This document shows positions 18,066-58,593 of a stretch of 64,000 nt of DNA, in pieces. How positions within the stretch are numbered: the stretch's first letter is position 1; the number at the start of each line of letters is the position of its first letter. The notes beneath the pieces were generated by a model, which was not told the DNA's origin, did no database searches, and was given only the letters and a program-made list of their open reading frames with translations. Source of the DNA: Octopus sinensis (lineage: Eukaryota); contig NC_042998.1 in NCBI RefSeq assembly GCF_006345805.1, positions 120,342,001 through 120,406,000 on the forward strand, given 5' to 3'. The translations under genes and the position numbers were made by a program.

Positions 18066-18427
18066 GATTTCAAATTTTGACACAAGGCCAGCACTTTCGA
18101 GGAGGAGTAAGTTGATTTCATTGACCCCAGTACTCAACTAGTGCTTAGATTTATTGACCCCAAAAGGACGAAAGTCAATCTTGGCAGAATTTGAACTCAG
18201 AATGTAAAGATGGGCGAAATGCTGCTACAAACTCTGAAAATTTTGAGGAGAGGGATCTAGTCAATTACACCAAACCCCCATGCCCTGCTATAGCGGTACC
18301 TATTTTATCGACCCTGAAAGGGTGAAAAGCAAACTTGACCATAGTGGGGTTTGAATGCAGAACGTAAAACCAGAAAAAATGCTGCTAATCATTTCATCTG
18401 ATGTGCTATCAATTCTACCAACTTGTC
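18066..18427 (-). mobile_element. Two head-to-tail SINE family B copies embedded in (AAT)n
   Basis: Reverse complement of the 8529-8970 pattern, with (aat)n/(gat)n on both flanks. Confidence 0.85.
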
Positions 18428-19677
18428 AATAATAATAATGATAATAAGGGTAAAAGTATCAAAAGTAATAATAAGGTGTACACACATGCACACACACAAT
18501 CAAGTAATTTTTCTATGATTTCTAATAAATATATTTGAGATTATAATTTGAACATAATGTATTGTCTAGTTGATGGTCCTATCTTGTCTGACACAGTATC
18601 AGATGTACATAAACACATATCTCTCAACAAACACACACACACACACACACACATGCAGGTCTATTTTTTGGATTTTATGAATATATTAGAGAAAGTAATA
18701 ATTGTTTTAACTGGTTGACATAATCTACTTAATTAACTTGTGTAAAAAAAACAAAAAAAAACAAAGGAAAAGAAAAAGTAAAAAGTTGAAAGCAAAAGTA
18801 ATTTCTGAATAATTCTTCTTGGGAAGGTGGGGTGAGAGAAATCACAGGGTGACTATAGGGGAAATGCTTTTATTACTTTCCTTTAATGTATTTTGTGCAT
18901 GTGTGTGTGTGTTTTGTGATATAAAACTGTAGCTAGTTAGTGAAGATTGTTAATTTAAACACTGATTAGGAATAATAAAATAAAAAAAGAAAAAGAAATA
19001 TTGTACAGTACTCACAAGTGACTGTTGCTGTTGAAGGCAGGCTAGTCGTTACTTCCTTTCTTTTTCTGTTTGTTTGGTTTTTTACTTACACTGAAACTCG
19101 CCTGTCAGCTGCTTCTAGCTACTAACACATGCTACAGTAGTTGATATTACCATATCAACTATGGAGCTGTAAGCATGCTTCTCTACTAGCTCCAGCTCCA
19201 ACTCCAGCTATTAGTTTTCGTACTCTCACAACAAGCAGCTCCTTGCATTTTTAAGCCCCAACCAGTTTTTGACCACATTCACTTCATTTTATTGGAGTGA
19301 CTATGTAATATGTGTTAATAATAGCTTTAATGTGTAGCTCCTCAGTGTTTTGTGTGTCAGCTCAGATGATTGCCGGCCAACATTTACGCTGAAAAGTATG
19401 ATGTGCATTGGGATTGTAGTTTGTTTTGTCGCTCGACAACAGGTGATTCTGGCTGATGAGCAAACTTCACTTCGTACAACTTACATGACATGAAAACGGG
19501 AAGAAAATGGCCATCAGAAAAGAAACCTTCAGACTGTTTATAAAAAACTTTTTATGGGATTATATTACCTGACAGCTAAGAGTGAATAATTTCTATATTT
19601 ACCTGTAAAGTTCTCTGTGGATTATCTATGTTGTTCTTGTTGTTAGCCATGAGATATTTGTGAAAGCCACCAGCACC

Positions 19678-19915
19678 ATGCCGACAAGACCACACAAATC
19701 ATTTAAAAAATCATTCCGGAATTTACAAACCAAAGGCATTCTCTCATTTGTACTATCAGCTGTCTATGTGCTCATTAAAGTCATGTTTATTATTGCTATG
19801 TTTTTCTGTGCAAAATTCCTGCACTATGGTGAAAAACTCATTCGTTTTTTATTTAGTGGTTTTGGAATGGATCCAGAAAAAGTCAACCCAAATTCTGATT
19901 ATTGTCATATAGAAG
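19678..19915 (+). CDS. trio: Putative alternative first coding exon of Trio (5'-extended form of the 19857-19915 exon) encoding a basic plus hydrophobic N-terminus
   Basis: The ATG has a good context (gcaccATG). The frame is open from 19609 through the donor and in frame with the Trio exon: MPTRPHKSFKKSFRNLQTKGILSFVLSAVYVLIKVMFIIAMFFCAKFLHYGEKLIRFLFS-GFGMDPEK.... There is no transcript evidence. Confidence 0.5.
19857..19915 (+). CDS. trio: Trio/Kalirin RhoGEF internal exon (59 nt; spectrin-repeat linker)
   Basis: Acceptor ttttttatttAG (phase 2) and consensus donor AG|GTAAGT (phase 1). It encodes GFGMDPEKVNPNSDYCHIE, which joins in frame to the 58478 exon to give CHIEGVLQQL, matching vertebrate Trio NHIETVLQQL as recalled. 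Confidence 0.85.
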
Positions 19916-20427
19916 GTAAGTACATATTTCTTCTATTGTTTGTATTGAATTTCTGTTTAGTGCTCTAACTGGGGAGGGTTATCATGTAAAAATATCTCAA
20001 ACCCTTCAGTTTGCTATAAACTTCTTTAACTCTACCTTTTGTTTTTAGCAGTTATTAACTGAAAATTTTCAGATTGTAGATTATATTGAAGTTATTTTAT
20101 GCTTGAAAAGAGAGAGAGAAAAAAAAAAGAACATTGCTTAATTCTCTTTTTTCCTTTCTTTTTGTTTTCCTTTTCTCCATGTTTTTCTCCTCCCACTTTC
20201 CTCCTCATATGATGCAGTGATGCTGTCACATGCTGAACATTGCAAACTTACATCTATTGATCTAAAACAATTACGGTGTATATGTATGTATGTGTGTGTG
20301 TATATATATATTAAACTACTAATTATCTCAAAAAATTGACAAAACATTAACTATTTGACAATTAAACTACCTGGAATTTATATTTACTGATTACTGTCAT
20401 ATTTATTGTTGATCTTTAAATCAGTTA

Positions 20428-20710
20428 GAGTTATAGTTCCTGTTTGATAACGAAACTACTCAGTGTTATTGTATTTGCTGTTTGACTTAACTGCCTAGTG
20501 TTATATTTACTGTCTGATAATGAAACTACCTAATATTGATGTACTTTCTGTTTGACAAACTATCTAGTGTTGTATTTACTGTTAATGGAAACTACCCAGT
20601 ATTATTATATTTGCCGTTTGACAAACTACCCAGTGTTATATTTACTATTTGATAATGAAACTACTCGGTATTATTGTATTTGCTGTTTCATAGTTAAGCT
20701 GCTCAGTATA
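20428..20710. repeat. Degenerate minisatellite, 32-36-bp units alternating as a roughly 69-bp dimer
   Basis: At least 7 units begin (a)aactac. Their endings alternate between ...tattgtatttgctgtttgac and ...gttatatttactgtttgataatg. Confidence 0.85.
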
Positions 20711-58067: not shown

Positions 58068-58436
58068 TCGATTTTGTAATTGATTTAATCCCTTCCCCCA
58101 AATTTTAGGCTTCGTGCTTCCAGTAGCAAGGATTATTATTATTATTATTTTTATTATTTTATTATTATTATTATTATCATTATTATTATTATTATTATTG
58201 CTACAGTGGTGAACAGGCAGAATCATTAGCACGCTGGATTAAATACTTAGTGGTATTTTGCCTGTTGCTACGTTCTGAGTTCTAATTCCACCAAGGTCGA
58301 CTTTGCTTCTCATTCTTACGGGGTCGTAAATTAAGTACCAGTGAAGCACTGGGGTCAATGTAATCAACTAGTCCCCTCCCCCAAATTTCAGCCTTTGTGT
58401 GTATAGTAGACAGGATTATTATTATTATTGTTATTG
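58068..58436 (+). mobile_element. SINE family B 3' fragment + (ATT)n + full SINE family B copy (about 58203-58436)
   Basis: (ATT)n at 58133-58199, then ggcagaatcattagcacgc...gttctgagttctaattccaccaaggtcgactttgc...aaatttcagcctttgtg...ggattattatt. Confidence 0.9.
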
Positions 58437-58477: not shown

Positions 58478-58593
58478 GTGTTCTACAACAACTTAATGAA
58501 AGTCGTGCACAGTTGGAGGAACTATGGGCCACCCGCAAACGGAAATTGGATCTGTGCTTAAAATTACGTCTTTTTGAAAGGGATGCATTAGAG
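58478..58593 (+). CDS. trio: Trio/Kalirin RhoGEF internal exon (116 nt; spectrin repeat)
   Basis: Strong acceptor (T)n-gtttttAG (phase 1) and donor GAG|GTAAAG (phase 0). It encodes (G)VLQQLNESRAQLEELWATRKRKLDLCLKLRLFERDALE, compared with recalled vertebrate Trio [38 protein letters not shown]. Confidence 0.93.

Follow-up and report, generated by a model that had tools for sequence, protein, structure and literature searches.

The Trio gene around a 59-nt exon

The DNA analysed here (hereafter the window) is a stretch of 64,000 nucleotides of the Octopus sinensis genome (contig NC_042998.1, positions 120,342,001 to 120,406,000), which lies inside a Trio gene. Named Trio proteins map exon by exon, in tblastn searches of 264 kb around the window, from -86 kb to +154 kb with the CRAL-TRIO domain first, and RhoGEF matches lie on the same strand at contig positions 120422295-120430095 and 120560121-120567073. 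The order given by tblastn and Pfam, i.e., CRAL-TRIO, spectrin repeats and two RhoGEF modules on one strand, is that of Trio/Kalirin genes. The window contains a 59-nt exon (19857-19915, donor GT at 19916), which belongs to Trio, being joined in RNA contigs upstream to an exon ending REGESLLERI and downstream to the exon at 58478-58593, whose best named matches by identity are bivalve. The last base of the REGESLLERI exon lies 3,739 before window base 0, and the intron separating it from the 59-nt exon measures 23,595 nt. Both introns flanking the 59-nt exon are long (23.6 kb before it and 38.6 kb after it, 19916-58477), and the next exons are densely spaced; such long introns would fit an internal promoter region.

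The end of the upstream intron can be read in the Trio frame. A TAA stop at 19606-19608 is followed by 82 open codons (19609-19854), among which an ATG at 19678, in the context AGCACCATGC with an A at -3, opens 59 codons ending at 19854; when read through, the acceptor AG (19855-19856) and the first base of the exon form a Ser codon. The first-pass annotation, made from the sequence alone, had described this open intron, a well-placed ATG giving 59 new residues, and the succession of a Lys/Arg-rich segment, a hydrophobic stretch of about 25 residues and an amphipathic run. Re-reading returned exactly the same frame and peptide, and the succession is borne out by charge, hydropathy and hydrophobic moment (table 1). 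Of the 678 acceptor-like site/phase pairs of the window, 1.3% are preceded by at least 82 open codons, and 1.3% of sampled positions have an open in-frame ATG at least 59 codons upstream; the hydrophobicity of the extension is reached by 9 of the 278 Met-started open stretches in 264 kb, the extension itself being one of the nine. Such an open frame and such hydrophobicity are unusual and, in a gene with dozens of exons, no proof. It is the transcripts and the conservation, not these chance statistics, that make the case for an isoform.

Table 1. Features of the Trio locus at and around the candidate internal first exon (window positions)
Feature	Position	Strand	Basis
Leader found in RNA, probably the 5' UTR of an internal first exon	18748..19677	+	X1 contig; its 5' end lies in a masked A-rich repeat, so the real start may differ
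59-codon alternative N-terminus, Met in good context	19678..19854	+	Frame; identity 45/59 with P0001-P0004 and 58/59 with P0005; 3/3 listed organism E substitutions synonymous
Basic amphipathic segment, residues 1-19, net charge +6	19678..19734	+	Hydrophobic moment 0.54-0.63
Hydrophobic stretch of 25 residues (20-44), interrupted by Lys34 (19777-19779); predicted to be membrane-embedded	19735..19809	+	Kyte-Doolittle 19-mer 2.56
Amphipathic helix, residues 45-59, with Lys46, Glu52 and Arg56	19810..19854	+	Bivalve charges in the same register; helix in AlphaFold model
AG acceptor used in ordinary Trio splicing; when read through, it contributes to a Ser codon (Arg in L022)	19855..19856	+	X12 shows the ordinary junction; X4 and X12 branch at 19855; L022 has the same phase-2 AG
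59-nt exon present in both forms; loop that precedes helix three of a spectrin repeat	19857..19915	+	RNA contigs; 59 nt in L022 too
Following Trio exon, joined to donor 19916; helix three of the truncated spectrin repeat	58478..58593	+	Sequence from 58480 on matched exactly by loose ends of X1, X12 and 12 X24 reads; Trio matches

Transcripts and conservation of the probable first exon

Seven of the 24 listed sequencing runs were compared with the window, five of them RNA or guessed to be RNA and two of DNA size. None of the matching runs is recorded as RNA, and 14 of them were guessed to be RNA; spliced joints back the guess for the three contig runs, X1, X4 and X12. In X1, a single RNA contig of 1253 nt lies on 18788-18890 and 19004-19917, with a masked repeat between these parts and 40 extra letters at its 5' end. 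From about 18748 it covers the ATG and the 59-nt exon without a break and extends 83 letters into exon 58478; neither an ordinary junction nor a branch at 19857 was seen in this run. In X4 and X12 both the read-through and the ordinary splice form are present, contig depth, which is a rough measure, being 7.2 and 8.5 across 19857 and 42.8 and 54.8 in the common downstream contig, respectively. The read-through share thus differs between samples. Contig depth is zero at 18503-18603, a short unique stretch and the only one tested upstream, in all three contig runs, and near zero in the downstream intron after 19917, except at a repeat, which speaks against genomic DNA or general intron retention. 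Raw RNA from a close relative (organism E) also covers the region: in X24, reads lie at 19370-19829 and 12 of the 20 aligned reads carry the splice at 19915, with two intronic background reads at 20382-20657, and in X23 a few reads lie at 19412-19815. The two observations singled out by the first-pass annotation as informative, RNA upstream of 19857 and a splice from 19915 to 58478, are therefore both at hand, the former in X1, X4, X12 and the organism E reads, the latter in contigs and reads alike. A delta-type transcript starting inside the spectrin-region intron is likely; its exon and splice are observed, depth is absent just upstream, and the 5' end itself is a putative one.

Two features of the RNA data are noted in passing. 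Short interspersed repeat copies at 18100-18450 and 58240-58410 show very high RNA depth coming from other loci, and two X12 contigs differ by A/G at 19738, in the codon of Ile21, either as alleles or through editing.

The extension is conserved in relatives, and its conservation is bounded by the Met and the donor. In P0001-P0004, from one relative, the shared exon is identical at 17/20 positions (see table 1 for the extension) and in-frame flanking identity falls to 3-6/23 before the Met and 3/17 past the donor; an FSVD motif is shared upstream, but in another frame of the window. These four alleles have one identical 79-residue core, with three upstream and two downstream variants. P0005 has a single replacement in the extension. 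In the DNA of organism E, the closer relative, all the listed extension substitutions are synonymous, where the expected share is 0.26 (P ~0.019), and the frame has no indel; a 3-base deletion lies in the leader, at 19637. Neither stops nor frameshifts, which the first-pass annotation had put forward as evidence against the frame, occur in the extension of the relatives examined. Comparison of these sequences shows the 59-codon frame to be under purifying selection, the synonymous test being one of three listed changes. The exon as a whole is more conserved in organism E than the downstream intron (14/912 vs 37/951 differences, P 0.0025).

The same leader could also be read as a non-coding first exon with a regulatory role, or as the end of a retained intron, with the frame hardly translated or with translation beginning at Met64 in the shared exon. 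The transcribed exon, of about 1.1 kb, has up to 19 upstream ATGs (19 counted from 18748, 9 from 19370), base-level divergence from organism E is as low in the leader (1.6%) as in the frame (1.7%), and the contigs cannot fix the start, that of X1 ending in a masked repeat. However, conservation at the protein level begins at the Met and stops at the donor, the bivalve-type sequences have Leu or Gln in place of Met64, a conserved frame of 345 codons at the same site in another locus (L022) cannot be due to chance, and a retained intron does not agree with the absence of depth just upstream or downstream. We thus consider this reading very unlikely. The leader constraint is of interest in itself: at 19004-19677 its divergence compares with 4.3-4.7% in the downstream intron, which suggests, at the level of sequence, promoter or UTR elements.

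The hydrophobic segment could also enter full-length Trio, if an alternative acceptor at 19647 inserted 70 residues into it. An acceptor-like AG is indeed present there, in frame and open, but the X1, X4 and X12 contigs pass through it with no break or loose end, the ten codons ahead of the Met are not conserved, and the L022 frame extends over 345 codons to its own Met; we give hardly any credence to such an insertion. The same AG (19628-19647), 31 nt before the ATG, could instead end a 5'-UTR intron whose removal would take away upstream ATGs, a junction not seen in the three contig runs. The existence of the short Trio isoform appears to us highly probable.

Bivalve-type sequences with the same exon design

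A protein search with exon 58478 returned 24 proteins (searched lengths 43-2000 residues), only one of which contains a long hydrophobic block. This protein, Mactra antiquata KAL4217263.1 (P0007, a predicted model named "hypothetical protein"), has no CRAL-TRIO domain according to Pfam; an unrelated N-terminus of 363 residues leads into the homologous exon, and the sole windows of the whole protein with a hydrophobicity of at least 1.6 lie at 310-366, directly before that exon. Other candidates among the 24 were discarded: the arthropod-type matches are either ordinary Trio or short intronic read-throughs of an unrelated kind, and a Mya model begins after the site. A metagenome scan gave at least 597 pattern matches, including at least one confirmed locus (L022), in which a frame of 345 codons begins with a Met at 786 and, uninterrupted by introns, reads across an in-frame phase-2 AG to enter a 59-nt exon whose donor is in phase 1. 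The L022 frame is homologous to the Mactra N-terminus along its whole length, with 37/59 identical residues in the hydrophobic block. Since this unbroken frame matches P0007, the bivalve-type read-through is a coding exon that is present in genomic DNA and conserved, and it lies at the same splice site. In both bivalve-type forms the hydrophobic block is preceded by about 290 extra disordered residues.

Alignment at the splice site shows that P0007 and L022 share their exon design with the octopus Trio extension. All four sequences agree in the sign of their charges at offsets -31, -19, -13 and -9 relative to the DPEK motif, so that four of the five charged positions of the octopus peptide have same-sign bivalve partners at equal distance from the splice site, and a Lys or Arg stands at the offset of Lys34 in 4/4 sequences. 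Sliding the charge register by up to 15 (30 registers) gives at most two matches (post hoc P ~8e-4). The octopus-bivalve similarity of the extensions is not significant in substitution-matrix shuffles (local P 0.20-0.62; anchored P 0.05, 0.10 and 0.20), and no relic of the bivalve disordered N-terminus was found in 264 kb of the octopus locus (tblastn E 1). A single origin of the octopus and bivalve extensions is the simplest reading, the letters of the anchor being weakly alike and convergence the alternative; the internal first exon is likely to be old within molluscs. A hidden coding exon in the form of a 5' extension of the 59-nt exon would also account for the gene predictor having split Trio at this place in the clam.

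The N-termini of the bivalve-type forms (L022:786-1640 and P0007 1-310) share conserved islands, SWHG, KRRS, FKSLF, RV[DN]WNIST[DE]SESDQT, HPIHTFQ and KKSVI. The RVxW island resembles the docking motif of PP1, and KRRS is similar to a kinase site.

The hydrophobic segment and comparison with known isoforms

The most hydrophobic 19-mer scores 2.5-2.7 in all forms, and ordinary insect Trio never exceeds 1.0. Residues 20-44 make up a hydrophobic run of more than 20 residues, broken by a basic residue (Lys34) and with basic flanks, a sequence pattern of hairpin anchors. Pfam gave no match for the 79-residue piece comprising the extension and the shared exon, and an ESM Atlas search returned only leads below 0.9. 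AlphaFold predicts one unbroken helix (7-61) and no hairpin for the octopus peptide (six shallow rows, pTM 0.36), and two helices with a break at an Arg-rich hinge for the bivalve-type segment (shallow, pTM 0.28); the hinge has no proline and the second octopus helix is amphipathic, not bilayer-spanning. The charge of +6 before the segment and the disordered N-terminus of about 290 residues in bivalves indicate a cytosolic N-terminus, and the GEF must be cytosolic too. If the segment crossed the membrane once, either the GEF or the basic N-terminus (290 residues in bivalves) would come to lie on the far side, and the arrangement is hence consistent with a monotopic hairpin or an interfacial helix. 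Anchoring of short Trio to a membrane by a cytosol-facing hairpin is, on these predictions, probable.

Two other roles of a translated extension have to be weighed against this anchoring. The segment may span the bilayer once, or be a cleaved or organelle-targeting signal, such as a type III anchor or a mitochondrial bipartite presequence: 25 hydrophobic residues are long enough, the basic, acid-free N-terminus is like that of a presequence, and the rough insertion energy is favourable. This is nevertheless unlikely, because the positive-inside bias (+6 before, +2 after) would place the GEF in the lumen, and the roughly 290 residues ahead of the bivalve segment do not suit a presequence or a type III anchor. 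Alternatively, the helix may bind protein, by packing on the orphan third helix of repeat 5, by dimerizing or by docking on a membrane protein. That the new start cuts a spectrin repeat precisely after its second helix, that AlphaFold gives one long helix and that the conserved charges could form a binding face are all compatible with such a role, but the hydrophobicity of the 19-mer is far beyond that of a spectrin helix, as judged from insect Trio, and the extension piece lacks any Pfam match; we regard protein binding as equally improbable.

We therefore retain, with a probability of about 0.7, the reading in which the last 1.1 kb of the intron is an internal first exon that encodes a short Trio with a predicted monotopic hairpin in the cytosolic leaflet. 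An intronic promoter would produce an mRNA whose first exon ends at 19915, and translation from 19678 would give about 606 residues up to GEF1. In a numbering inferred from Kalirin, spectrin repeats 1-4 and helices A-B of repeat 5 would be missing from the product, as would Sec14, and repeats 6-9 and the GEF domains would be retained. In human Trio, repeats 6-9 are reported to lower GEF1 activity about 20-fold (PMC9467883). Residues 20-44 would insert monotopically, kinked at Lys34 or with Lys34 snorkelling, the basic N-terminus and the following amphipathic helix lying on the cytosolic surface with both ends cytosolic. A fixed anchor would in this way be swapped in for reversible targeting by Sec14 and lipids. 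The anchored form would most likely reach the ER first, and possibly lipid droplets or other endomembranes, and would make up a tissue-dependent share of Trio transcripts, while the 9-19 upstream ATGs may throttle translation and keep the protein low.

The parallel drawn by the first-pass annotation with delta-Kalirin holds in part. Delta-Kalirin is reported to have an internal start, its rodent promoter lying in intron 10-11, to lack Sec14 and four repeats, and to carry upstream ATGs in its leader (PMC3048553, PMC11630257) that are reported to throttle translation (PMC3048553); the human Kalirin starts are delta and deltaEx12 (PMC11630257). An internal start in the spectrin region, the loss of Sec14 and four repeats and the upstream ATGs of the leader would thus be common to both, but the start is not the same, since the delta promoter lies two exons earlier. 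Kalrn exon 11 encodes QLAQTGE, which corresponds to the exon two before the octopus 59-nt exon (near -9407), and human exon-12 primers, read by hand, match the exon one before it. Delta-Kal7, moreover, is described as soluble and cytosolic, with no hydrophobic extension reported in these sources. Delta-Kalirin proper was hence set aside as an identity for the octopus form, whose extension includes the hydrophobic 19-mer of table 1.

By analogy, the segment appears to resemble most the spastin-M1 hairpin, which is described as a 23-residue hydrophobic run broken by Arg65, with both ends cytosolic, on the ER and lipid droplets (PMC4395272). In M1 compared with M87, as in the putative octopus form, an alternative start adds a hydrophobic N-terminus broken by one basic residue and then basic residues. 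Spastin is however an unrelated protein, and its anchor is added to the long form whereas that of Trio would replace Sec14 and spectrin repeats, so that this is a working analogy and not a membership. The ER-to-lipid-droplet hairpins of GPAT4 LiveDrop, ALG14 and UBXD8 have two hydrophobic helices, a basic hinge and basic flanks, and mid-helix tryptophans (PMC12687460). The bivalve segment is like them in its Arg-rich hinge and its two to four Trp; it differs in lacking a hinge proline, and the octopus peptide has no Trp. Droplet targeting of the octopus form, predicted by analogy, is less likely than not.

Within the gene family, Kalirin Ex1C is described as an alternative first exon; the basic amphipathic helix that it encodes binds phosphoinositides and directs the protein to the Golgi (PMC9823006). 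The candidate octopus exon would resemble it as an alternative first exon with a membrane-binding front peptide; that of Ex1C differs in being short, peripheral and ahead of an intact Sec14. Solo/Trio8 is reported as a membrane-associated short Trio isoform of early endosomes (PMC4536496, PMC8467920), and differs from the octopus form in keeping Sec14 and all spectrin repeats (PMC3547891). Internal starts in the spectrin region, membrane-binding front peptides and membrane-associated Trio are thus known, and a hydrophobic anchor replacing Sec14 would be new. The part that is special to Solo/Trio8 is C-terminal. Myristoylated variants of Dbs were not confirmed in the literature examined. In the open-access literature we found no description of an anchored short Trio, just as the first-pass annotation had known of none; an unnamed predicted model of more than 2000 residues, with both GEFs kept, may exist.

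The place at which Rac and Rho become active depends on where a Rho exchange factor is located. The known isoforms of Trio, a protein with a central part in axon guidance and neurodevelopmental disease, are brought to membranes by Sec14, PH domains or partners. The trade of Sec14 for an anchor in both cephalopods and bivalves would point to a fixed, organelle-bound Trio pool. The furthest-reaching version, in which molluscs have possessed since the bivalve-cephalopod split an undescribed integral monotopic Trio held permanently on the ER and lipid droplets by a spastin-M1-like hairpin, seems to us rather doubtful; if true, a Rac/Rho exchange factor on these organelles would couple actin control to them. 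The extension would also provide a short targeting peptide that can be tested directly.

One or two cysteines lie in or beside the hydrophobic segment in all four sequences, at differing positions (the 19741 and 19809 region in octopus; 339 and 363 in P0007), and their placement makes S-acylation possible.
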